A stretch of 64,000 nt of DNA from a virus (taxonomy: Duplodnaviria; Caudoviricetes). The translations under genes and the position numbers were made by a program. Position 1 is the stretch's first letter. Each line of letters starts with the position of its first letter. Below the pieces are notes generated by a model. It did no database searches and had not been told where the DNA came from. It worked only from the letters and a program-made list of their open reading frames with translations. Location: the IMG/VR virus record IMGVR_UViG_3300027754_000035; one strand, 5' to 3'. This document shows, piece by piece, positions 8,478 to 28,152 of this stretch.

Positions 8478-9992
8478 ATGAATTCTACACAATTACATAA
8501 GATAGTAAAAAAACTACAAGATCAAATCTTGACTGAAAGTCACGATCTTGTTTTGCAACAAGCTGGCGCAGCTTTGAATAAAGCTCATACTGCTGAAGAT
8601 TTTATGAGAGGGTTTGTTGGAAAGAGGCTGAAAGATTTGTTGGATGCTGGAAGCTTTGCCAATTTGTATGTGATGAACAAGTATGGTATTGGTAGTGAAT
8701 ATGATGAGCAAGATGATAAGGTATTGTTGAATAAATTATGGCAAGCTGCTACTGGATTTATCAACAATCGTGTTTTGGAACCAATCAGCAAGCAACGCAA
8801 GGTTTGGGATGCTGAAAACTATGCAAAGCCAGAATATATAGATTGGAAAAAGCAACGTGCTTTGGTTGGTAAGGCATATAGAGATGCTAGAGACAGTGGA
8901 AGTGCGGATGCTGATGAATTGAAAAAACAATATTTCAAATTAATCTCGGAAGATCCTACACTGGGTGATTACAGAAACATGATGGATGATATGAAAATAG
9001 TGGTTCAGCAATTTCATAATAAACGATTAACGTTGAAAGATGTATTACCAGCGTCGGAGGATACTGAGCAAGACAAAAAGAATTGGGCGTCTGTCGAAAA
9101 ATTATATTCAGATTTTCGTAAAAATACAATTAAAGAACAATCATCTATGCCTACAAATTATCCTGCTGTTAAAGTATTTGTGTCTACTGTTGGTGGAATT
9201 CGTATATTGATGTGGAAGCAACAAAACTTTGACCGAGAAGTTGGTAGCGATGCTAATGTAAAAACATATGGTAATTTTGCAAGCTTGATTCGCAATCTTG
9301 GTGTTGATCCCAGCAAATTAATGACATCGGATCGTGATGCTGTGCAAGTATTAAAGTTTTTAAGTTCCAGTGAAATTCGTCAACTCACCAACAAAGAAAG
9401 TGTGATCACCACAAGCATACCACCAGAAATTATGGATAAATTCAGTACCGATAAAAATTTACAAGAAACCAATTCTATGACCAAAAACCAAAAATTCAAA
9501 AAACTCATTCGCTCAATTATTGCCGAAGAGTTCAAAGGAAACCCCAATGATGCAGCTGAAGTAGAAAGCGACAAACTTACTGCGCATTTAAGTGAAGATT
9601 CTGTTGCTGATGATATCAAGGATTTGGAGGCATTGTTGGCAAATCCAGATGCATCCAGAGCAAAAGATTATGGCAGCATTGAAAACTATAAGAAAATGTT
9701 GCGCAGCAAGATTGCACGTTTGAAGGGTGATGAAACTGGTATGGGCCCGGAATATCGTGTACGCAGTGATGAACCAGCACCATTTGGATATGGTCTTGAT
9801 GAAAAAGGTGATGTCAAGAAGGTGAGTGCCAAGGCGTTGGATCAAACCAAGGATGGTACAATCGATACTGGAGATGCTGTGGTTGCATCAAGAAAAGAAA
9901 AGATTGCATTGAGCACGGGCAACAAAGCAGATGCTGCATTTTACAAAAAGATCAAAGCTATTGTAAATAAACACAAAGGTCGTAAAGTATAA
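8478..9992 (+). CDS. hypothetical late protein (possible internal head protein)
   Basis: 504 aa; preceded by TATTTATA; L/I-x-E motifs (ILTES, HLSED). Confidence 0.75.
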   Translation: MNSTQLHKIVKKLQDQILTESHDLVLQQAGAALNKAHTAEDFMRGFVGKRLKDLLDAGSFANLYVMNKYGIGSEYDEQDDKVLLNKLWQAATGFINNRVLEPISKQRKVWDAENYAKPEYIDWKKQRALVGKAYRDARDSGSADADELKKQYFKLISEDPTLGDYRNMMDDMKIVVQQFHNKRLTLKDVLPASEDTEQDKKNWASVEKLYSDFRKNTIKEQSSMPTNYPAVKVFVSTVGGIRILMWKQQNFDREVGSDANVKTYGNFASLIRNLGVDPSKLMTSDRDAVQVLKFLSSSEIRQLTNKESVITTSIPPEIMDKFSTDKNLQETNSMTKNQKFKKLIRSIIAEEFKGNPNDAAEVESDKLTAHLSEDSVADDIKDLEALLANPDASRAKDYGSIENYKKMLRSKIARLKGDETGMGPEYRVRSDEPAPFGYGLDEKGDVKKVSAKALDQTKDGTIDTGDAVVASRKEKIALSTGNKADAAFYKKIKAIVNKHKGRKV

Positions 9993-9995
9993 CAT

Positions 9996-11240
9996 ATGAA
10001 GATGTCTCGTATCGAACTAAAACAAATTATCAAAGAAGTTGTAGACTCAGTATGCAACGAGGTTCTGAGTGAAGACTATTTTGCCAGAGTAAAAGCCACG
10101 CCACTTGATAAATTTGTGGCTCAAGAGTTAAGCGAGGCTGATATGCTTGGTGCCACAACAAAGGCAATGACTCCAGATGAAATGCAGGCATATTTGCAAA
10201 AGGTTCGTGGTGAGCCTGTTGTGAATAAAAAAACAGGGTTACCTAAGTTAGATAAAAATGGTAATCCTGTATATGTGTCCACGGCTGACAAGGTGGATAA
10301 ATATAAAATGCCGTATGTTCACCGAGGCAATATTAAAATCAAGGATGAAAGTGACCGCACGTTTGATTTGGATAAACTAAAGGCAGCAATCACACAACGT
10401 CCAGACAAGATTCTGAAGCAGAACGAAAAGATCACGCACAGTGGTGGCGGCAGCACAATGTATTACAACATTGGTTTACCGGCACTGAAAGGCTTGGCGG
10501 TCAATGAAAAGACTGGAGAATTTGTGGTGGTGGATACATGTCCTGGTGCTGGTGCTTGCAAAGTATATTGTTATGCCAAAAAAGGTGGATATGTTCAATG
10601 GAAGGCAAGTTCGTTGTCACAAACACGATTGTTGAACTTTTTGTTGAATGACCCACAAGGATTCAAAGCCAAATTGGAGAGTGAGTTGTCCGCAGCAAAA
10701 AGCAAGTTTGGTAAGAAAGGAACAAAAGTTGTGGTACGCTGGCATGATGCTGGTGACTTCTTTAGTCCAGAGTATGTGGATTTAGCATACAGTGTAGCCA
10801 AAGACTTTCCAGATGTTGATTTTTATGCTTATACCAAGATGGCCGGTGTGGCATTGGGCAACAAACCAAACAACTTCAAGATGAATTTCAGCATGGGTGC
10901 CACCCCAGATCAAGAAAAACAAATTAATTTCAGTAGCACCAAACATTCAACTGTTGTACCAAAACCAATGTTTACCGATTTGATCCTCAAGGATGCGGAT
11001 GGTAAATTGGTAAAGGTTGATGGTAAGATGCAATTCAAATCACCAGATGCAGTGGAAACATTGAAGCAGAAGTTGGCGGCGAAGTATGGTGTGAACAAAG
11101 ATAGTGTGATCACTTACGACGAAATGATGAAGATTCCAGTTGGTGACAAGCCTAAATGGAATGTGATCATCAAGCCTGGTGATGGTGATGATGCCGCAAA
11201 TCGAGCAGACGTGATTGGGTCGTGGTTATTGATTCACTGA
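9996..11240 (+). CDS. phage GP88-like (radical-SAM-related) protein
   Basis: DTCPGAGACKVYCYAKKG Cys triad, VRWHDAGDFFS, FYAYTK. Confidence 0.8.
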   Translation: MKMSRIELKQIIKEVVDSVCNEVLSEDYFARVKATPLDKFVAQELSEADMLGATTKAMTPDEMQAYLQKVRGEPVVNKKTGLPKLDKNGNPVYVSTADKVDKYKMPYVHRGNIKIKDESDRTFDLDKLKAAITQRPDKILKQNEKITHSGGGSTMYYNIGLPALKGLAVNEKTGEFVVVDTCPGAGACKVYCYAKKGGYVQWKASSLSQTRLLNFLLNDPQGFKAKLESELSAAKSKFGKKGTKVVVRWHDAGDFFSPEYVDLAYSVAKDFPDVDFYAYTKMAGVALGNKPNNFKMNFSMGATPDQEKQINFSSTKHSTVVPKPMFTDLILKDADGKLVKVDGKMQFKSPDAVETLKQKLAAKYGVNKDSVITYDEMMKIPVGDKPKWNVIIKPGDGDDAANRADVIGSWLLIH

Positions 11241-11294
11241 AAAAAACTTAAAAAAGATTTGATGTTTTTCAATTTCCAAGATAGTTATTCGTAT

Positions 11295-11372
11295 ATGACA
11301 CCAGTTTGTGTACAACATATTAAGCGTGAATGGTATAATACAACCTTTGATAAAAGAAAGGTTGGCGGCTGA
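11295..11372 (+). CDS. leader peptide 1 (MTPVCVQHIKREWYNTTFDKRKVGG)
   Basis: 25-codon ORF whose 3' end overlaps the antiterminator segment; codons match array-1 tRNAs. Confidence 0.8.
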   Translation: MTPVCVQHIKREWYNTTFDKRKVGG

Positions 11373-11440
11373 TATTTTGTATACATAACTAATAAAAAAA
11401 CAATATCAACCGTCACCCAGAAATGAGTGACGGTTTTTTG
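11341..11440 (+). promoter_or_regulatory. transcription attenuator upstream of tRNA array 1
   Basis: 1:2 hairpin caaccttt/aaaggttg (11341-64); 2:3 antiterminator 11360-75 with 11403-18 (14/16 pairs); 3:4 terminator aaccgtcac/gtgacggtt plus U-tract. Confidence 0.8.
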
Positions 11441-11469
11441 TTTGAAAATGTTGGTAAAAAAATGATGTT

Positions 11470-11580
11470 GACAGTTACAGAAAGGGTGCTAAAGTAATAA
11501 CAGTTGCGAGACAAAGCGCAGCAAAGAAAAACGAAAAGAAAAAAAAGACAGTTGACAGCGATAAAAAGTGTGATAGACTG
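11470..11580 (+). promoter_or_regulatory. tandem sigma70 promoters ahead of array 1
   Basis: TTGACA-16-TAAAGT near 11470 and TTGACA-16-TAGACT near 11553. Confidence 0.6.
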
Positions 11581-11602
11581 TTAGAACAATTTAAGAAACG
11601 AA

Positions 11603-11735
11603 GGCTTGAAACTCCATCTGTTGAGCCTCCGCCAGTGAGTTGGGAAACCAACAATAAGGTAAAGTCTGGAAAAATCAATTGATTGGTCAACGGGTGTTAT
11701 GCTGCAATACAGAACCCGTATGGCGATGAAATTGC
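11603..11735 (+). ncRNA. putative structured ncRNA, copy 1 (homolog at 24875-24975)
   Basis: Shares an identical 26-mer (gggtgttatgctgcaatacagaaccc) and a conserved-loop hairpin with copy 2. Confidence 0.65.
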
Positions 11736-11770
11736 GATTAAGATCGTTATTTTCTTTATATGTATATGAT

Positions 11771-12379
11771 ATGGGTATACTACATGAATTAGGAACAAAA
11801 TATAATACGGATAAAGCTTGGTGTCACAGATACATGGATTTTTACGAACAATTTTTTGCGCCGATTAAAAATGATGTTAAAAAAATTATTGAAATCGGTG
11901 TACAATGTGGCGGAAGCATACAAACATGGTTAGAATATTTTCCAAATGCAACCGTGTATGGAATTGATTGTGCGCCTCGACCAGAAGTTTTGCAACATGA
12001 ACGTTTTGTTTTCATTACAAAAGACGCTTTGAAAGAAGACGTTTATGGTATGTTTTCTGATGGAGACATTGATATCGTAATTGACGATGGTAGTCATTAC
12101 ATGTCGCAGCAACAAGATGCAATAAAATATTATTGGTCAAAAATAAAACCCAATGGTTATTTTGTAATGGAAGATTTACACACATCATTTGCGGGTGAAT
12201 CACACAATCCACAATATATTGATAGATTACCAACAACATACGATTTTCTCGCAAACAATCTTGATTCGCAAGATGTCGAATTGAACGCAATTCGAAAACA
12301 ATTTTATGAACGACACCACTACAACCGTGATGGTGGATTGCATATCAATGCAAGTCTTACGTGTGTGATCAAAAAGTAA
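11771..12379 (+). CDS. class I SAM-dependent methyltransferase
   Basis: LGTKYNTDK.W.H.Y..FY, IIEIGVQCGGS..TW..YFPNA.VYGID, IVIDDGSH, YFVMEDL. Confidence 0.88.
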   Translation: MGILHELGTKYNTDKAWCHRYMDFYEQFFAPIKNDVKKIIEIGVQCGGSIQTWLEYFPNATVYGIDCAPRPEVLQHERFVFITKDALKEDVYGMFSDGDIDIVIDDGSHYMSQQQDAIKYYWSKIKPNGYFVMEDLHTSFAGESHNPQYIDRLPTTYDFLANNLDSQDVELNAIRKQFYERHHYNRDGGLHINASLTCVIKK

Positions 12380-12390
12380 TATATAATTTT

Positions 12391-12466
12391 GCCACCTTAG
12401 CTCAGTTGGTAGAGCATCAGTTTTGTAAACTGAGGGTCGTCGGTTCAACCCCGACAGGTGGCTCCA
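12391..12466 (+). tRNA. tRNA-Thr(UGU)
   Basis: Full cloverleaf, loop TT-TGT-AA, CCA end. Confidence 0.95.
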
Positions 12467-12474
12467 GTTTTAAT

Positions 12475-12550
12475 GTTGGATATCCTCTATGTAGTAAGAG
12501 CATTGCCTGTGAAGCAATCAAAGGGAGTGCAAATCTCCTTATCCACCCCA
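12475..12550 (+). tRNA. tRNA-His(GUG)
   Basis: ATTGC CT-GTG-AA GCAAT; C73; T-loop TGCAAAT. Confidence 0.85.
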
Positions 12551-12558
12551 AATTTAAT

Positions 12559-12637
12559 GGCCTTATCGTCTACGAATGAAATAGGATTCTGGATTCTCAA
12601 TCCGGAGAACTCGGTTCAACTCCGAGTGAGGCTACCA
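12559..12637 (+). tRNA. tRNA-Glu(CUC)
   Basis: CTGGA TT-CTC-AA TCCGG; GGCCTTA/TGAGGCT acceptor; CCA. Confidence 0.85.
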
Positions 12638-12646
12638 ATTTACAAT

Positions 12647-12721
12647 GGTCTATTCGAACATCAGCTAGTTCGCTAGTTTTTCAAACTGGAAAAGTGGGGG
12701 CAGCACCCACATAGACTACCA
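12647..12721 (+). tRNA. tRNA-Glu(UUC)
   Basis: CTAGT TT-TTC-AA ACTGG; atypical T-loop GGCAGCA; CCA. Confidence 0.85.
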
Positions 12722-12726
12722 TTTAC

Positions 12727-12802
12727 GGTCCGGTGGTGAAACTGAATATCACACAACATTACGAACGTTGAATTTAGGGTTTAACTCCCTACTGGACCAC
12801 CA
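12727..12802 (+). tRNA. tRNA-Arg(ACG)
   Basis: CAACA TT-ACG-AA CGTTG; GGTCCGG/CTGGACC; CCA. Confidence 0.85.
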
Positions 12803-12901
12803 ATTTAGTTGTCAGATGCAAAATTCTGAGTTCCGTTATATTCAACTACCGAGAACAGGCATCAGGAGCGATCATGCTCTGCCAACTAATTAATTTATGA
12901 T

Positions 12902-12977
12902 ATCCGCCCATGTTCCAAGGCAGGCGACAGAGACTCCAAATCTCAGTGGGAAAGTTCGATTCTTTCGGCGGATGCCA
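12902..12977 (+). tRNA. tRNA-Trp(CCA)
   Basis: GAGA CT-CCA-AA TCTC; ATCCGCC/GGCGGAT; G73 CCA. Confidence 0.85.
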
Positions 12978-12988
12978 ATTTAACAAAT

Positions 12989-13064
12989 GCACATGTAACT
13001 CAGTTGGTAGAGTGCGAGTTTTCCAAACTTGCTGTCGTGAGTTCGAATCTCACCATGTGCTCCA
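12989..13064 (+). tRNA. tRNA-Gly(UCC)
   Basis: Canonical cloverleaf, TT-TCC-AA, U73 CCA. Confidence 0.95.
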
Positions 13065-13190
13065 ATTTCCACTAATATAAATGAGATAAATAAAAAACGG
13101 CATGGTCTCATGTAATGGGTTCGATTCCCAACCCGCTGATGAAAATCAGAAGTGTAAGCCTGTATTATGTGAAGTGGAATCAATTTTTAT

Positions 13191-13267
13191 GGGATTGTAA
13201 GAGAATGGCTTCATCGCTTATCCTGTCACGATAAGAAAGTCGGGTTCAAATCCCACCAGTCCCGCCA
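13191..13267 (+). tRNA. tRNA-Asp(GUC)
   Basis: TTATC CT-GTC-AC GATAA; G73 CCA. Confidence 0.85.
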
Positions 13268-13558
13268 TTTTTCAAATACATTAGGTGAAGGCAACGAACG
13301 TAGTTTAATTGGTAAAACAACCGCACGAATAAGCGGTGATCATTCAGTTCGAGTCTGAATCAACAGTTGAAGTAGTAAGTAATGTATTGACACTGATAGA
13401 CATTGAATGTTATAATCTGACGAGATTATGATTAGTAAGTGGAACAACGTGAAATCCAGTAAACACTTTTGAAAGAGAGTCGGTTGAAGTCCGAACGGAA
13501 GTGCAACGCACCCTAAGTAGTGGTAAGAGAATCCACGCTTTCAAATCAATTTTTTAAT

Positions 13559-13632
13559 TCCCGAGTAGTGTCAAAGTAGCACGGAACGCTGTTAACGTTC
13601 TTGTGAGGGTGCGAGTCCTTCCTTGGGAGCCA
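13559..13632 (+). tRNA. tRNA-Asn(GUU)
   Basis: GAACG CT-GTT-AA CGTTC; G73 CCA. Confidence 0.9.
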
Positions 13633-13640
13633 ATTTCAAT

Positions 13641-13715
13641 TCCTATCTAGCACAACGGTAGTGCGTCAAACTGTTAATTTGATGGTTCTTGGTTCAAATC
13701 CAAGGGTAGGAGCCA
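13641..13715 (+). tRNA. tRNA-Asn(GUU)
   Basis: TCAAA CT-GTT-AA TTTGA; G73 CCA. Confidence 0.93.
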
Positions 13716-13724
13716 ATTTTTAAT

Positions 13725-13813
13725 GGTAGTGTATCCAAACTGGTGAAGGAGATCGACTGTAAATCGATTGCCATGTGCTAAACTTGTAGGTTCAAATCCT
13801 ATCGCTACCACCA
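13725..13813 (+). tRNA. tRNA-Tyr(GUA)
   Basis: ATCGA CT-GTA-AA TCGAT; long variable arm; CCA. Confidence 0.9.
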
Positions 13814-13894
13814 AATTTCGTGTAATAACGAACAGATAGGTTAAACCGCTAAACTTCTAGAAAGCTAAAGTTTTATCTATCTGACAATTTTAAT

Positions 13895-13979
13895 GGGAGT
13901 ATCGCATAGCGGCAATTGCAAGACGCTGTAAACGTCTCGGTTCACGCCTTCGTAGGTTCGAGTCCTACTGCTCCCACCA
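13895..13979 (+). tRNA. tRNA-Tyr(GUA)
   Basis: AGACG CT-GTA-AA CGTCT; long variable arm; CCA. Confidence 0.93.
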
Positions 13980-13985
13980 TTTTAA

Positions 13986-14093
13986 TCTGTGTGTAGTTCA
14001 GTAGTAGATCAAAGCACTGCTATGATGGTAAATGACACCGCAAAAGGGCAGAAGAAGCTTAGGCCGTTGGTGCAAATCCAACCACACAGATCA
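13986..14093 (+). ncRNA. tRNA-like RNA with expanded anticodon arm
   Basis: TCTGTGTG/CACACAGA acceptor, D-arm and T-arm GTTGG-TGCAAAT-CCAAC are intact; the central arm is about 45 nt. Confidence 0.6.
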
Positions 14094-14205
14094 ATTTATA
14101 CATTTGGAAATAATATGCAACAAAATATATTGAAAAGGTTGCATGGTGTAAGGTAACATACTCAATCCTATTGTTTGAGAGATTATTAACCACATAATGT
14201 AGTTT

Positions 14206-14277
14206 TTGACAGATGACGTGGTAAAGACCCCGATTCATCATCGGGGTCGGAAAGGTTCAACTCCTTTAATCTGTCAA
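14206..14277 (+). ncRNA. minimal tRNA-like RNA (reduced D-arm)
   Basis: TTGACAGAT/ATCTGTCAA closing stem, GACCCCGA/TCGGGGTC arm, T-arm AAAGG-TTCAACT-CCTTT; no CCA. Confidence 0.5.
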
Positions 14278-14289
14278 TTTATTTTTAAT

Positions 14290-14365
14290 CCGGATTAAGC
14301 TAACTTAGTAGAAGCGTCTGTTTGAAGAGCAGAATGAGTCAGAGCGTAACTGACAATCCGGGCCA
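14290..14365 (+). tRNA. tRNA-Phe(GAA), atypical
   Basis: CCGGATT/AATCCGG acceptor, TCTGT TT-GAA-GA GCAGA, T-loop AGCGTAA, G73 CCA. Confidence 0.65.
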
Positions 14366-14470
14366 ATTTTAGTAGTAATCGCACTTGGTATCGCCCAAGT
14401 TTAACATGGATGAATCGGAGTATATCTATGGATCTGTGGTGTCACGGAGCGGTGAATGATTTAGAAACAT

Positions 14471-14872
14471 ATGATTATAAATACAGTTCCAACGGTACCA
14501 AAACTTATTGCCGCAATAGCAAATTGTTTGCATCCAAAATTGTTGAAACCCGAGTATCGGCAAACAAATGCAAATAATCCTATGTATGGACATTGTTATG
14601 TTGCTACCGAGGCGTTGTATTGTTTGATGAATAAATTTTCATTGACTGATACGTTCAAGCCATTTCAAGCAAAAGATGAAAACAACGTGAGTCATTGGTG
14701 GTTGCAAAGTCAAGACGGAGTGATCATTGACATAACAGCATCGCAATATACGAGTGTTGGTAAAACGCCGCCATACAGCAATGGCAAGTCAAGATCTTTC
14801 ATGTATCCGTCACCATCAAAAAGAAGCAGAAACGTGATGGAAGCGGTTCTGAAAAAAGTTGTTGACCTATGA
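14471..14872 (+). CDS. hypothetical protein with possible Cys-His-Asp (papain/transglutaminase-like) triad
   Basis: GHCYVATEA...SHWWL...IIDITASQY. Confidence 0.75.
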   Translation: MIINTVPTVPKLIAAIANCLHPKLLKPEYRQTNANNPMYGHCYVATEALYCLMNKFSLTDTFKPFQAKDENNVSHWWLQSQDGVIIDITASQYTSVGKTPPYSNGKSRSFMYPSPSKRSRNVMEAVLKKVVDL

Positions 14873-14928
14873 CGAATGTGTGGTAAGATGTTTATAGTTC
14901 GTTGACAACAGCAGATACAATTTTTAAT

Positions 14929-15006
14929 GGATGTGTAACTCAACTGGATTAGAGTATTCGGTTCTTACCCGAAAGGTTGTGGGTTCAAATCCCACCACAT
15001 CCACCA
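14929..15006 (+). tRNA. tRNA-Lys(CUU)
   Basis: TTCGG TT-CTT-AC CCGAA; CCA. Confidence 0.92.
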
Positions 15007-15013
15007 ATTTAAT

Positions 15014-15089
15014 GGGTAACTGACCCCATAAGTGACTGCCGACCGGTACATTCGGTAAAACACAGTGACAGCTTGGAAAGACAGCACCA
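15014..15089 (+). ncRNA. CCA-terminated non-cloverleaf RNA
   Basis: Has tRNA-style spacers and ends GCACCA, but lacks a canonical T/D arm. Confidence 0.45.
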
Positions 15090-15096
15090 ATTTAAT

Positions 15097-15171
15097 GGGA
15101 TTCAAGCTTTAATGGTGAAGCAACTGGCTTTTAACCAGTGGAACACGGATCGTTACCGTGGAGTCCTACCA
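15097..15171 (+). tRNA. tRNA-Lys(UUU)
   Basis: ACTGG CT-TTT-AA CCAGT; T-loop ATCGTTA; CCA. Confidence 0.85.
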
Positions 15172-15362
15172 ATTTAGTTATTTGACAAAGCTAGTCAAGA
15201 AGGTTTGTATTGGGTCGCCCCTGATACTTTTTCCTTGAAGATAGATACGAATGTAGTTTAAGAGAAGAACGCCCGCCGTAGAAAGCGGGAGATTTAAGGT
15301 GCGACTCCTTAACGAATGTAGAACACATTTTATCGTGAAATCCTTTCAAAAATCCAATTTAT

Positions 15363-15441
15363 GGGGGTATGGTGTAACTGGTTAACATCGCACACTGTCA
15401 CTGTGCAGACTTGCTCGGTTCAAATCCGGCTACCCTCGCCA
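15363..15441 (+). tRNA. tRNA-Asp(GUC)
   Basis: GCACA CT-GTC-AC TGTGC; G73 CCA. Confidence 0.88.
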
Positions 15442-15448
15442 TTTCAAT

Positions 15449-15522
15449 TGTCTCTTAGCTTAAGAGTAAAGCCCACAACTGATAATTGTGTGACGACGGA
15501 GCGTTACCGTCAGAGACAACCA
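15449..15522 (+). tRNA. tRNA-Ile(GAU)
   Basis: CACAA CT-GAT-AA TTGTG; T-loop AGCGTTA; CCA. Confidence 0.85.
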
Positions 15523-15718
15523 ATTTTTTGAGATAGCTGATAAGGTCTGAAAAACATGATAAGTAAGACACAAACTGAATAGTAACAAAGATCATCTTTA
15601 GATTTACAAAGGCTTAGTAAATCGATATTATGTGAGTGAAATTTGAGGAAAGCAACTAAGCAACAAGTTTCTGATTACATAGGATCTGTGTATGAAGGAT
15701 TTTTCAAAATATTTTAAT

Positions 15719-15795
15719 GCATCCGTAGCTCAAATGGATAGAGCTTCCGGTTTCTACCCGGACGGCTGTAGGTTCAATTCCTACCGGATGCACCA
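15719..15795 (+). tRNA. tRNA-Arg(UCU)
   Basis: TCCGG TT-TCT-AC CCGGA; CCA. Confidence 0.95.
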
Positions 15796-15799
15796 TTTT

Positions 15800-15997
15800 T
15801 GATAGAGTAGTGTAATGAAAGCACGTTACAGAGGTTAGCTGTAGCTGGGATGATCCAAATTTATTTGGGTAAATGTAAACGACGACTACGGAATAACCTA
15901 TATTTTAGATGTATTAATTCTCATGATTGTCATGTCGATAAACTCCAGTAAGGTAATAAAACTTGAGGTTTGGGTTTGATTCCCAACTCTATCACTA
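15800..15997 (+). ncRNA. about 200-nt tRNA-mimic with a large internal insertion
   Basis: TGATAGAG/CTCTATCA closing stem, D-arm GTGT-AATGAAA-GCAC at the 5' end, T-arm TTGGG-TTTGATT-CCCAA at the 3' end. Confidence 0.6.
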
Positions 15998-16052
15998 ATT
16001 TATAATTGTATTCTATATATGATTGATATTTATTTGTAACAACCATAACAAT

Positions 16053-16409
16053 ATGAAGAAAAAACTATTTGAGAATATCGGCAACAACACATTCAAACTC
16101 AGAAGCAATCTGAATGAGAGCGTTCTTAAGACAAGAATGACACTCACCAATCCTAAAACTGGTGCTGAGTCGGATGTTGATCTTACGGTAACATACACCG
16201 CTACTAAATCATCCCGTGGGGAACGTGAACGTGGTACAGGTCTTCAGTTGTCGCCTGATGATGAAGGGTCAATTGAAATTGAAAGCGTAAAAGATTCAAC
16301 TGGTCAAGACGTTGTTCTGTCAGACTCTGAATTAGAACAACTAAAGGCCGACATCGACGAGCGTTTGTCAGATGCTCACAATGATTACGATGAACCAGAT
16401 AATCTGTGA
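16053..16409 (+). CDS. hypothetical protein
   Basis: ORF preceded by a TATTTAT motif; acidic C-terminus. Confidence 0.75.
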   Translation: MKKKLFENIGNNTFKLRSNLNESVLKTRMTLTNPKTGAESDVDLTVTYTATKSSRGERERGTGLQLSPDDEGSIEIESVKDSTGQDVVLSDSELEQLKADIDERLSDAHNDYDEPDNL

Positions 16410-16538
16410 AGTAATTTCACATTTTTGACGATATGTATAAGAGTGTTTGGTGTTAACCGCACTTTTTATCGTTTCGTGTGTGTGAGTAGTTGATGAAGGA
16501 GAACGAATTGACAAATCAACTAGCACCAAACACATTTT

Positions 16539-16615
16539 GCTCACATAGCTAAATTGGAGACAGCACTTCGGTCCTAACGAAGCGATTGAAGGTTCAAATC
16601 CCTCTGTGAGCACCA
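16539..16615 (+). tRNA. tRNA-Arg(CCU)
   Basis: CTTCG GT-CCT-AA CGAAG; CCA. Confidence 0.88.
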
Positions 16616-16672
16616 CTTTTGTATTGACGTTTTATAGGAACGTAGCAAGATGACTACAGTTCTTTTATTAAT

Positions 16673-16749
16673 GGGCGTGTAACTCAACTGGATAGAGTGC
16701 GAGTCTTCGAAACTCGAAGTTGCAGGTTCAAATCCTGCCATGCCCACCA
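16673..16749 (+). tRNA. tRNA-Arg(UCG)
   Basis: CGAGT CT-TCG-AA ACTCG; CCA. Confidence 0.95.
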
Positions 16750-16907
16750 CTTTTTGAACACAAGGCGAATATTTGTCGCTAAGACGACTGGAAAACGTAT
16801 CCAGCTAACTGCCGAGTGAAGTATCCACGGTGCGACTCTGAATCGCAACTGGCTCTGAGAATTGATACTATGTTGGTATAAATAATCCAACTGTGTTCAA
16901 AATAATT

Positions 16908-16984
16908 GCCTTATTAGTATAAGTAGTTTATTATGCAAGTTCGGTAAACTTGAGAATCCAGTGCAAGTCTGGAATAAGGCTCCA
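16908..16984 (+). tRNA. tRNA-Thr(GGU)
   Basis: CAAGT TC-GGT-AA ACTTG; GCCTTAT/ATAAGGC; T-loop TGCAAGT; CCA. Confidence 0.8.
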
Positions 16985-17005
16985 CTTTTACATATTTATT
17001 ACTAT

Positions 17006-17476
17006 ATGATACTATTAAAAGATTTGTTGAATGAAGCACAACCCGAGTTGACTGTATACAGAGGTGTTAATCCCACATACGGTGATATAGGGTTGGGTAT
17101 AAACAGCACCAAGATTGGTGACAAGTTAGTGGCTACACTGGGACCAAATCATACAAACAATATAGAAGTTGCAAAAAAATTTGGTAAACAAATAACAACT
17201 ACTAAGTTAAAAGGGCCTGGATTAGAATTGTCGCATTACAATGATATAATTAAGTTGTATAAACAGTATGAAAACATGTTGCCCGTTGGTCTTGCTGGTA
17301 AAATTAAAAATAGTAATGGACAAGCTCAATTAGATTTAATACAATTAGCTGGTAAAGATCTGCGCAATATATTGAGTAAGAGATATGGATACATCAAAAG
17401 TCCTCTTGCAATTAGTGATGCTAGTTATTTGAGTGAAAAAGGTCTGACTGGTGATCTGTATATTCCATTGAAATAA
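17006..17476 (+). CDS. putative ADP-ribosyltransferase-fold protein
   Basis: TVYRGV and HTNNIEVAKKF motifs; MILLKDLLNE N-terminus; late motif upstream. Confidence 0.6.
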   Translation: MILLKDLLNEAQPELTVYRGVNPTYGDIGLGINSTKIGDKLVATLGPNHTNNIEVAKKFGKQITTTKLKGPGLELSHYNDIIKLYKQYENMLPVGLAGKIKNSNGQAQLDLIQLAGKDLRNILSKRYGYIKSPLAISDASYLSEKGLTGDLYIPLK

Positions 17477-17497
17477 TTTTTGTTGAGATTCAATTTT

Positions 17498-17572
17498 GCC
17501 TCCTAAACATAGATAGCGATGTGTTAGTTTCGTAAACTAAAGAGGACAGTGCAAGTCTGTCATGAGGCTCCA
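17498..17572 (+). tRNA. tRNA-Thr(CGU)
   Basis: TTAGT TT-CGT-AA ACTAA; CCA. Confidence 0.85.
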
Positions 17573-17580
17573 ATTTTAAT

Positions 17581-17655
17581 TGACACTTAGCGTAATAGAA
17601 ACGCAATCGGCTCTGACCCGAAAGATTGTAGGTGCAAGTCCTACAGTGTCAGCCA
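17581..17655 (+). tRNA. tRNA-Gln(CUG)
   Basis: ATCGG CT-CTG-AC CCGA; TGACACT/AGTGTCA; G73 CCA. Confidence 0.88.
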
Positions 17656-17662
17656 ATTTTAT

Positions 17663-17746
17663 GCATCGTTAGCCAAATGGGAAGGTTGCGGTCTGCAAAA
17701 CCGTAGTGGCAACACAGAGTTAGTTCGATTCTAACACGATGCTCCA
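17663..17746 (+). tRNA. tRNA-Cys(GCA) with long variable arm
   Basis: GCGGT CT-GCA-AA ACCGT; GTG-GCAA-CAC extra arm; U73 CCA. Confidence 0.88.
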
Positions 17747-24676: not shown

Positions 24677-24736
24677 ATGAAGTACAGTCTACAACCATCA
24701 TCGTTAGCAGTAGCGGGTCAACCTAGTTTGACCTGA
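24677..24736 (+). CDS. leader peptide 2 (MKYSLQPSSLAVAGQPSLT)
   Basis: 19-codon ORF directly before antiterminator/terminator; codons match array-2 tRNAs. Confidence 0.8.
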   Translation: MKYSLQPSSLAVAGQPSLT

Positions 24737-24807
24737 TACCGATGGTTTACTTTTGAATACAAACTCTCAAGCTAACCGTTGGTCTCAAAAAGACCAACGG
24801 TTTTTTG
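24693..24807 (+). promoter_or_regulatory. transcription attenuator upstream of tRNA array 2
   Basis: 1:2 aaccatc(24693-99)/gatggtt(24741-47); 2:3 accgatggtt(24738-47)/aaccgttggt(24774-83); 3:4 12-bp terminator aaccgttggtct/agaccaacggtt plus U-tract. Confidence 0.8.
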
Positions 24808-24862: not shown

Positions 24863-24874
24863 GATTACATGTTC

Positions 24875-24975
24875 GGGGTTGAAACTCTATCTGGTGTCCC
24901 CAACGAAGGTTAAAACACTTGATCGGTCACTGGGTGTTATGCTGCAATACAGAACCCAACTGGCGATAAATTTGG
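24875..24975 (+). ncRNA. putative structured ncRNA, copy 2 (homolog at 11603-11735)
   Basis: gggg/cccc stem around the same ttgaaactcYatctgKtg loop; identical 26-mer at 24932-24957. Confidence 0.65.
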
Positions 24976-27297: not shown

Positions 27298-27408
27298 ATT
27301 TTGACGGACGTAAGTTAACTTTCATATAGCCCACGATGATTAAATGATTGCGATTTTGTGGGAGCTAGAAGCAATCAGGTTAACCTTAGTCCGTTAGACA
27401 ATTTATAT

Positions 27409-27494
27409 GCTAGCTGCAATCTGGTGAGAACGTTGGCTTAGGATTGAACTTAAGTTATCAGCGGTGATGGGTTCGATTCCCGTAGTTTGCACCG
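27409..27494 (+). ncRNA. degenerate tRNA-like RNA with elongated central arm
   Basis: T-arm ATGGG-TTCGATT-CCCGT; weak acceptor GCTAGCT/AGTTTGC; ends ACCG. Confidence 0.45.
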
Positions 27495-27849
27495 TTTTTT
27501 GATTTAACAATGTGCGTGTTGGGTGGAAACGTCCAACAGCGTGAGGGACACGATACACCCCTGTATGTCTGACCCGGACGAATCTGATCCAGATAGGATA
27601 GGGTTGAATTTTTAGATTTGATTGTTAGTGTATAGAATTATAGCACAATACCCGTGTGAGGGTATAGGAGACTGACGTTGGTGGGTTAGACAGTAATGGA
27701 ACGTTTTTCGTGAGATCCCCATATATTCGCAAGTCACAGTCATCCAATTTAACACAAACACCCGATAGGAGGATTCCGTAAGGGTTTGGGCGCATGTGCC
27801 GCATTGCTTTTTAGCGTATAATAGCACGGTTTGTGTTTTTAGATTTACA

Positions 27850-27877
27850 TTGACAAACAATAAAATTGTGGTAGACT
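27850..27877 (+). promoter_or_regulatory. sigma70-type promoter (near-leaderless)
   Basis: TTGACA-16-TAGACT; ATG 6 nt downstream. Confidence 0.7.
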
Positions 27878-27883
27878 GTGTAT

Positions 27884-28111
27884 ATGAAAAATGTTTTATG
27901 CACCATGATTTTGATTGGTGGATTTGTATTTGCTGGTGAGATTGTGAAACAAGACACTACACTACCGATTACTGTGTATATGATACGAAATGGAGACACA
28001 GATCGTACTATTCATCGTGTGTTTTTAACAGAAAAAGCTGCTAAACGTTATGTTAATGATTATAAAGAGAGTCACGCATACGAATATGAAGCAGTCTTAC
28101 TCAAGGAATAA
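27884..28111 (+). CDS. small protein with signal-peptide-like N-terminus
   Basis: MKNVLCTMILIGGFVFAG. Confidence 0.7.
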   Translation: MKNVLCTMILIGGFVFAGEIVKQDTTLPITVYMIRNGDTDRTIHRVFLTEKAAKRYVNDYKESHAYEYEAVLLKE

Positions 28112-28152
28112 CTATTTATTGAGAGTGGTGGGTTTAATTTTTAAGGTATAAT

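Follow-up and report, generated by a model that had tools for sequence, protein, structure and literature searches.

A probable leader-peptide transcription attenuator at the head of a phage tRNA gene array

The DNA analysed here, referred to below as the window, is a stretch of 64,000 nucleotides (nt) from IMG/VR virus record IMGVR_UViG_3300027754_000035 (Duplodnaviria; Caudoviricetes), which represents part of a large uncultured phage and carries 31 tRNA genes called by ARAGORN together with a gene for transfer-messenger RNA (tmRNA). At the head of the first of its tRNA gene arrays (array 1) lies, on the plus strand at 11241-11439, a compact unit that we interpret, with a probability of roughly 0.65, as a ribosome-mediated (leader-peptide) transcription attenuator of the trp/ilv type. 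An attenuator had been proposed at this site in an earlier reading made from the sequence alone, and that interpretation was supported by our analysis. Those attenuator-defining elements that can be tested in silico, namely a promoter of its own, a translated open reading frame (ORF), mutually exclusive pairings and the placement of the stop codon, are all present and conserved. The 1:2, 2:3 and 3:4 pairings exclude one another, and 3:4 is a terminator stem followed by a U-run. A transcription start at this promoter, coupling of ribosome and polymerase, termination that responds to stalling, and a meaningful share of read-through beside the promoters located downstream are what we infer in addition.

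Segment 1, the 5' arm of an outer 1:2 helix, lies within codons 3-11 of the leader ORF (11302-11326) and in the minimum-energy fold pairs with 11368-11391, a duplex of -19 kcal/mol. Inside this helix sits an inner hairpin of eight base pairs (11341-11364), evident both by direct reading and in the fold, in which caaccttt (11341-48) pairs with aaaggttg (11357-64) and sequesters the 5' end of segment 2. The sequence-only reading had equated 1:2 with this hairpin, which is found exactly where it was placed, but the element is larger, with the outer helix enclosing the hairpin, and in the minimum-energy fold the two jointly hold all of segment 2. Segment 2 (11360-11391) spans the stop codon and, in duplex analyses, pairs through 11360-11376 with segment 3 and through 11368-11391 with segment 1. 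Segment 3 (11401-11418) was placed by comparative pairing; its positions 11401-11408 pair with TGATATT of segment 2, and its upper part forms the 5' arm of the terminator. The 2:3 pairing previously described between ggttggcggctgatat (11360-75) and atatcaaccgtcaccc (11403-18) was recovered with 13 Watson-Crick pairs, one G.U pair and two mismatches. The intrinsic terminator (11408-11439) was likewise as described, with aaccgtcac (11408-16) pairing to gtgacggtt (11427-35) in a stem that can be extended to 12 pairs and a run of six T at 11434-11439.

This architecture is not a product of chance; it is real, conserved and selected. Homologues were sought in two ways, with segment 3 as the query, a search biased towards the element, and with the conserved non-coding block downstream as the query against viral and metagenome contigs, a search unbiased for the element. 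Homologues of the window's leader (leader 1) comprised 76 distinct copies in phage and lake metagenome contigs, with 45 distinct peptides. The region of the window folds with a z-score of -5.6, none of 200 shuffles being as good, and its 2:3 duplex outperformed 300 segment-2 shuffles (p = 0.003, the lowest value that the test allows). For the first 19 copies the 2:3 duplex ranged from -12.7 to -24.2 kcal/mol, beat segment-2 shuffles in every case (p 0.003-0.007) and covered 8-11 nt of the 9-11 nt of the terminator 5' arm; for the 54 distinct segment combinations of the enlarged set the range was -15.7 to -26.6 kcal/mol. Between 15 and 19 nt of segment 2 were common to the 1:2 and 2:3 pairings. 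When segments were swapped with those of the paralogous unit described below, the cognate 1:2 and 2:3 pairings reached about -20 kcal/mol as against about -10 for the swapped ones.

The pattern of substitutions pointed the same way. An outer 1:2 helix was found in every copy, with arms that are lineage-specific yet complementary, and the equivalent of the inner hairpin in relatives showed five pairs changed on both sides. The terminator stem was paired in 98.7% of cells across relatives and included three compensated pairs. The structure retained by RNAalifold comprises the inner hairpin, the terminator and the lower half of 2:3; in the count on this structure 96.6% of cells were paired versus 29-48% when slid, and 10 pairs had changed on both sides versus 2.8 +/- 1.2 in shuffles, none of 500 of which reached 10. 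Because the two types of segment 2 had been aligned one register apart, column-based covariation of the upper part of 2:3 on MAFFT alignments was dropped and register-aware tables and swap tests were used instead; by the former, this antiterminator-specific portion was 75% canonical, versus 25-56% when slid. Arm positions 0 and 2-7 were paired with segment 2 in at least 48 of the 54 combinations and with segment 4 in 53-54 of them, and each base of the terminator 5' arm was able to pair with segment 2 or with segment 4. Some changes were coordinated three ways: where the arm had A in place of G, both partners carried U, and where it had C in place of U (8 combinations), both carried G. Coordinated arm changes alternating between G.U, A-U and G-C likewise occurred. 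Segment 2 is moreover kept at the RNA level in two different frames: the window reads it as GGC-GGC-TGA, other lineages as G-GCG-GCT-GAT-ATT-GTG-TAA. The stop codon falls within segment 2 in the window, L120 and L148, and at the 3' edge of segment 2 in the main clade.

The promoter of the unit, P1, consists of an UP-like A-tract and a -35 box, TTGATG (11259-11264, the two together at 11241-11264), and of a -10 box, TAGTTA (11282-11287), which begins 17 nt after the -35 box and ends 7 nt before the ATG. The -35 box was identified by direct reading; relatives have an A-tract and a TTGAYG box equally far from the ATG, and their -10 box is TG-n-TATATA. In the copies inspected, an A-tract is followed by TTGAYG-N17-(TGn)TATATA, ending 7-9 nt before the ATG. 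The position of P1 predicts a 5' leader of 0-2 nt, that is, an RNA that would be leaderless or nearly so. A Shine-Dalgarno core was observed upstream of the start in only 2 of the 43 window genes (long ORFs), starts being preceded by A/T-rich sequence, and its absence from the leader ORF is therefore unremarkable; this rarity suggests a host with Shine-Dalgarno-independent initiation.

The leader ORF itself (11295-11372, plus strand; MTPVCVQHIKREWYNTTFDKRKVGG) was confirmed by direct reading, with an ATG at 11295, a TGA at 11370-11372 and 25 codons, and its putative sensor core spans approximately codons 7-21. The ATG is conserved, insertions and deletions within the ORF are all multiples of three, whereas no such restriction on length applies to the spacer beyond the stop. 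Within the 11-codon core Y-T-[HN]-I-K-R-W-[DN]-T-F-T, six of eight distinct single-base differences were synonymous and two were not. On this evolutionary evidence the leader ORF appears to be translated. The peptide is strongly conserved (YTHIKRW[DN]TFTNCEC), and its Trp is invariant in all 45 peptides.

Folding of the window RNA under a masking ribosome, a check put forward with the sequence-only reading, gave the pattern predicted by attenuation. A ribosome footprint was placed at each codon and the nascent RNA before segment 4 was refolded. The probability that the terminator 5' arm is paired upstream was 0.20 in the absence of a ribosome; it rose to 0.54-0.82 when the A site was at codons 2-20 and fell to 0.00-0.01 from codon 22 to the stop, so that in this model a ribosome arriving at the stop would mask segment 2 and permit the terminator, as had been suggested. 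In the relatives L185 and L089 the full-length equilibrium, too, flips to the antiterminator when stalls are placed at codons 9-16.

A further line of evidence comes from the correspondence between leader codons and the tRNA genes that follow. Array 1 (12391-17746, plus strand; ARAGORN and Rfam) contains genes for Thr, His, Glu, Arg, Trp, Gly, Asp, Asn (two), Tyr (two), Phe, Lys (two), Asp, Ile, Arg (three), Thr, Gln and Cys tRNAs, of which His(GUG) at 12476-12550 and Glu(CUC) at 12559-12637 were added by ARAGORN under relaxed settings. The sequence-only reading had matched codons 8-22 to this array; a cognate exists for 14 codons, but the Glu-UUC tRNA it had named was not found, and codon 12 (GAA) has no detected cognate. 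In the window, 20 of the 24 leader residues belong to the array-1 set (binomial p = 0.04), a weak match because array 1 covers 14 of the 20 amino acids and 65% of residues. Across the 45 peptides, 669 of 675 residues (99%) belong to the set in the 15-residue core that surrounds the invariant Trp, versus 263 of 418 (63%) in the flanks. Of the minority residue types within the core, 51 were in the set and three outside it, where mutational neighbours would predict 66% in the set (P = 9e-7, relatedness not being taken into account). Residues outside the set lie in codons 2-6 and C-terminally, at sites whose sequence is constrained by RNA pairing. The match between codons and array is thus weak for the window copy alone and strong at the family level and for the second unit.

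This second, paralogous unit (24677-24806, plus strand) was identified by comparison and comprises a leader ORF at 24677-24736 (MKYSLQPSSLAVAGQPSLT), a segment 2 at approximately 24737-24752, and a terminator at 24774-24802 with a T-run. It is followed by a promoter, a paralogous RNA block and array 2 (ARAGORN: Val, Pro, Leu (five), Ser, Ala, Gly and Gln, plus strand), the first gene of which is tRNA-Val. Its relatives, with 12 distinct peptides, have Val, Pro, Leu, Ser, Gly, Gln and Ala tRNAs behind them, and then tmRNA where the locus reaches that far. Between 75 and 94% of the residues of unit-2 leaders fall in the array-2 set, versus 44% expected. For the window leader this enrichment had p = 1.6e-4 after mononucleotide shuffling and p = 1.5e-3 after codon-position shuffling, and for unit-2 leaders overall p ranged from 2.6e-5 to 1.6e-3 after nucleotide shuffling, the lowest value being found in relatives. 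For leader 2 a Fisher test on the exclusive classes gave p = 5e-4. The two leader cores together cover 19 amino acids with no overlap. The unit-2 2:3 pairing is subtype-specific. The RNA switch of unit 2 is less well supported than that of unit 1, because in the swap test its 1:2 pairing was no stronger than that of cross-unit pairs (-11.3 vs -11.3) and the shuffle test for 2:3 was non-significant in several copies.

Some further observations concern the second unit and its array. At L219:~8800-8900 (minus strand of the locus) the unit-2 leader is without an ATG of its own and seems to extend a reading frame that is already open 5' of it. It may thus form one ORF with the gene upstream, in which case ribosomes translating that gene would run on into the attenuator. 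Array 2 is closed in the window by a phage tmRNA (28247-28634; tag AEENVVSYDFSYENVGAVAA), as it is in L185, L197, L204 and L223, and it may be no coincidence that a ribosome-rescue RNA lies beside stall-sensing leaders. A third cassette before the tmRNA or within the arrays was considered and rejected, as 27850-28112 proved to be a promoter with an ordinary ORF of 75 amino acids, and the nine larger gaps of the window contained no unit of mini-ORF and terminator.

The unit travels with the tRNA array, not with the gene upstream. In the window it lies between a Gp88-like gene (9996-11240, PF17338) and array 1, whose first gene, tRNA-Thr, begins at 12391. Of 80 loci encoding the Gp88-like protein, only one has the element directly 3' of that gene, and the element is therefore not tied to it. 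Every copy for which downstream sequence is available sits 5' of a tRNA array starting Thr-His-Arg-Glu-Trp-Asn, and in all of these the terminator is followed by one or two sigma-70-like promoters, a structured RNA block and then the array. Searches of GenBank phages with 9996-12400 (megablast) and with 11241-11700 (blastn) returned no match, and thus no close relative, there; the DNA runs that contained at least half of this stretch's sampled words were freshwater metagenomes from several studies.

As we picture its action, RNA would be initiated at P1 with its 5' end at or within 2 nt of the AUG, and a ribosome would translate the 25-codon leader as RNA polymerase makes segments 2 to 4. Were the leader left untranslated, segment 1 and the inner hairpin would hold segment 2 and the 3:4 terminator would form; were the ribosome to reach the stop codon, it would cover segment 2 and the terminator would form again. 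A stall in the core (approximately codons 7-21, encoding Gln, His, Ile, Lys, Arg, Glu, Trp, Tyr, Asn, Thr, Phe and Asp) would instead cover segment 1 and leave segment 2 free, whereupon a 2:3 helix of 15-17 base pairs would take the whole 5' arm of the terminator and polymerase would continue to the tRNA genes. Because the core uses almost only amino acids of array-1 tRNAs, the unit would raise array-1 transcription when the cognate aminoacyl-tRNAs are scarce and would shut itself off once supply is restored. A more tentative idea, which we would not quite back at even odds, is that both units serve as on-demand sensors of tRNA supply that sample, codon by codon, the amino acids of their own array, add to the transcription of that array whenever one of the aminoacyl-tRNAs concerned falls short, and so act as a viral decoding homeostat. 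Shortage might arise from host tRNAs unsuited to the codon usage of the phage, from host defences, or from turnover induced by the phage.

Transcripts of the region are represented in lake metatranscriptomes, where contigs from three runs start at 11304, 11313 and 11316 and extend across the terminator to 11753-12120, with depths of 29, 10 and 18 versus 4, 0 and 13 for the upstream gene. They give a weak hint of a start near 11295 with some read-through, being contigs that carry no strand, exact ends, levels or single molecules, from poly(A) libraries that may favour the internal A-tract. None of the contigs from the three runs ends at the terminator, which proves nothing, as short RNAs are lost in such libraries. 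In one run (X16) an Illumina adapter is fused to a contig end at approximately 11313-11316, at leader codon 7, and the end at 11316 may be an abundant RNA end (a processing site) or an assembly artefact.

Several results weigh against attenuation or restrict the form it could take. Contrary to what is expected of genes under attenuator control, the tRNA genes have candidate promoters independent of the unit: strong promoter-like sites lie between the terminator and the tRNAs in every copy (two, or one in some relatives), and array 1 is therefore not dependent on read-through. In the window they are two sigma-70-like promoters on the plus strand, identified by sequence reading and conserved in relatives, TTGACA-N16-TAAAGT (11468-11495) and TTGACA-N16-TAGACT (11552-11579). 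The RNA contigs cross the terminator, so termination may be leaky, or the contigs may not be single transcripts. The 2:3 duplex of the window (-15.7 kcal/mol) is among the weakest of the family. At equilibrium the full-length RNA of the window copy prefers the terminator in every case (at least 0.57), so any control would need to act kinetically, as it does in the trp leader. The match of leader 1 in the window, taken alone, is not significant once the leader's own nucleotides are shuffled (p = 0.065-0.10). Sensor codons occur once or twice each, with no runs as in classical leaders, and sensitivity to any single tRNA may therefore be low. From genome to genome, leader content follows array content only in part: it does so in L017 and L191, and L185 keeps Tyr, His, Asp and Glu codons with a complete array that is without those tRNAs, and such tracking was not used as evidence. 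Finally, a peptide so strongly conserved in sequence would equally fit a functional micropeptide.

This last point, together with a promoter and terminator of its own and downstream genes that need no read-through, is what would be expected if the unit were a self-contained small gene, in which P1, the mini-ORF and the terminator gave an always-terminated RNA of ~145 nt that acted through a 25-residue micropeptide and/or as a small RNA in trans, the alternative pairings serving to tune its own translation or stability instead of read-through. Trans-acting attenuator products have a precedent (PMC7298713, PMC7968998). Such a gene would leave unexplained the maintained complementarity of the whole terminator 5' arm to segment 2, with its coordinated changes, the constant position of the stop codon in or just after segment 2, the conservation of segment 2 across two frames, and the fact that two unrelated leaders each precede the array whose amino acids they use; RNA contigs that bridge the terminator also speak against it, and we consider it unlikely. 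We hold to be distinctly unlikely the idea that the switch senses translation in general (ribosome availability, coupling or global stalling) and that its match to the array is a by-product of RNA or compositional constraints. Codons used only once or twice, a composition test that is not significant in the window, and partial tracking are all compatible with it, and the arrays divide roughly into split-box and family-box codons, so leader and array may share a bias for unrelated reasons. It sits poorly with the difference between core and flanks across the family, with minority residue types that are in the set in 51 of 54 cases as against 66% expected, and with unit-2 leaders that are still enriched after both nucleotide and codon-position shuffles.

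The invariance of the Trp in a conserved peptide, and stalls at codons 9-16 that favour the antiterminator, would also fit a nascent-peptide arrest leader resembling TnaC, SecM or ErmCL, in which a stall in the exit tunnel in response to a ligand or state drives the RNA switch. No arrest motif of a known kind was recognised. Unit 2 has the same architecture with a very different, variable and low-complexity peptide, and unit 1 tolerates replacements freely provided that the new residue belongs to the amino-acid set of the array, which makes arrest very improbable. An ordinary terminator of the Gp88-like gene, accompanied by a chance ORF and chance complementarity, is scarcely credible. No other terminator lies between the stop of that gene (11240) and the element, and the A-run and T-run flanking the hairpin give it a bidirectional look, but the comparative data already contradict this reading, through the linkage of the unit to the tRNA array and not to the Gp88-like gene, its own conserved promoter, its coding signature, and the covariation and shuffle controls. 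Supply-sensing attenuation of array 1 is accordingly the reading that we prefer.

Between the promoters and array 1 lies a conserved, structured non-coding RNA block (11586-11740, plus strand) with two helices that show compensatory changes and with a paralogue at 24868-24975. The block precedes the first tRNA of both arrays, other examples being L089:2270-2420 and L185:3220-3345; it corresponds to no Rfam family at threshold and could be an element of precursor processing or of processive antitermination. In the window and in L148 only, an ORF for a methyltransferase dependent on S-adenosylmethionine (PF13578/PF01728; 11699-12379) is found between the block and tRNA-Thr, and in the other relatives the block abuts the tRNA. 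The first-ATG call of this ORF overlaps the block, and comparison with L148 suggests a start at MGILHELG, probably at ~11772.

The arrays themselves may hold slightly more than is listed above. Rfam tRNA matches with no ARAGORN call were observed at 13987-14090 (104 nt, possibly with an insertion) and 15247-15320, one of the Rfam-only matches lying at the gathering score, and a tRNA-like T-arm ending at ~27495 (~27330-27497) was called by neither program. A tRNA with a four-base anticodon (CUCU, in an 8-nt anticodon loop; ARAGORN) recurs between tRNA-His and tRNA-Arg in many relatives, for example at L089:2645-2720, L098:1847-1922 and L169:3310-3385, and its homologue in the window is the Glu(CUC) gene at 12559-12637, called under relaxed settings only. 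At L200:661-736 the tRNA region includes a tRNA with anticodon CUA (ARAGORN 'Pyl') that would be an amber suppressor. Colinearity of leader residues with tRNA order was examined and rejected (Kendall tau 0.2, p = 0.45 in the main clade; -0.08 in the window).

Phage tRNA arrays are usually seen as constitutive patches for codon usage or as spares against defences that target tRNAs, and to our knowledge essentially nothing is established about their regulation. If attenuation is indeed at work here, the phage would measure decoding speed directly and feed it back on the transcription of tRNA genes, and attenuation would reach beyond its classical range in three respects, by acting on RNA genes, by operating in viruses, and by using a 'sampler' leader in which a dozen amino acids are read together. 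With 76 distinct copies, the leader family is large, and it would offer a compact natural part for sensing tRNA supply. A full-text literature search found no description of leader-peptide control for tRNA genes or phage tRNA arrays.

Among known systems, T-box riboswitches of Gram-positive bacteria resemble the unit in a choice between terminator and antiterminator that reports tRNA status to translation-related genes; they differ in binding uncharged tRNA through a specifier loop and the T-box sequence, with neither ribosome nor leader ORF. The T-box family (RF00230) had no Rfam match at the gathering threshold over the window, nor any with E up to 5 over 11240-11800, and the best Rfam 15 matches in the latter interval were far under the gathering score (SQ2397, 24.3 vs 100 bits; STnc240, 24.8 vs 55). 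In Sinorhizobium meliloti, the terminated attenuator RNA rnTrpL and the leader peptide peTrpL can act in trans (PMC7298713, PMC7968998). That system is relevant since the unit described here also has its own promoter, terminator and conserved peptide; it has no counterpart to the array linkage and the match of leader to array, and a trans target is neither known nor predicted here.

The closest likeness is to the enterobacterial leaders (ilvGMEDA for Ile, Leu and Val; thr for Thr and Ile; trpL, hisL, leuL and pheL), which share with the unit a short translated leader, exclusive 1:2, 2:3 and 3:4 pairings with 3:4 as the terminator, segments 1 and 3 that are similar and both complementary to segment 2, and a stop codon that lets the terminating ribosome cover segment 2. 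In ilvGMEDA and thr, as would be the case here, several amino acids are sensed by one leader. Unlike those leaders, which precede genes for biosynthetic enzymes and contain runs of one to three amino acids, the unit precedes viral tRNA genes and samples about 12 amino acids once or twice each; it further differs in an mRNA predicted to be (near-)leaderless and without a Shine-Dalgarno sequence, in strong promoter-like sites between the attenuator and the tRNA genes, and in a peptide conserved as sequence. The attenuator of E. coli pheST, which encodes phenylalanyl-tRNA synthetase, has the pheM leader with a run of Phe codons. It is alike in that leader-peptide attenuation governs the gene for a component of the translation machinery, the rate of decoding thereby influencing the capacity to decode, and differs in that one amino acid and a cellular, protein-coding synthetase gene are involved, as opposed to the tRNA genes of a virus. 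On this reading, we class the element as classical attenuation applied to viral tRNA genes, with a leader that samples many amino acids.

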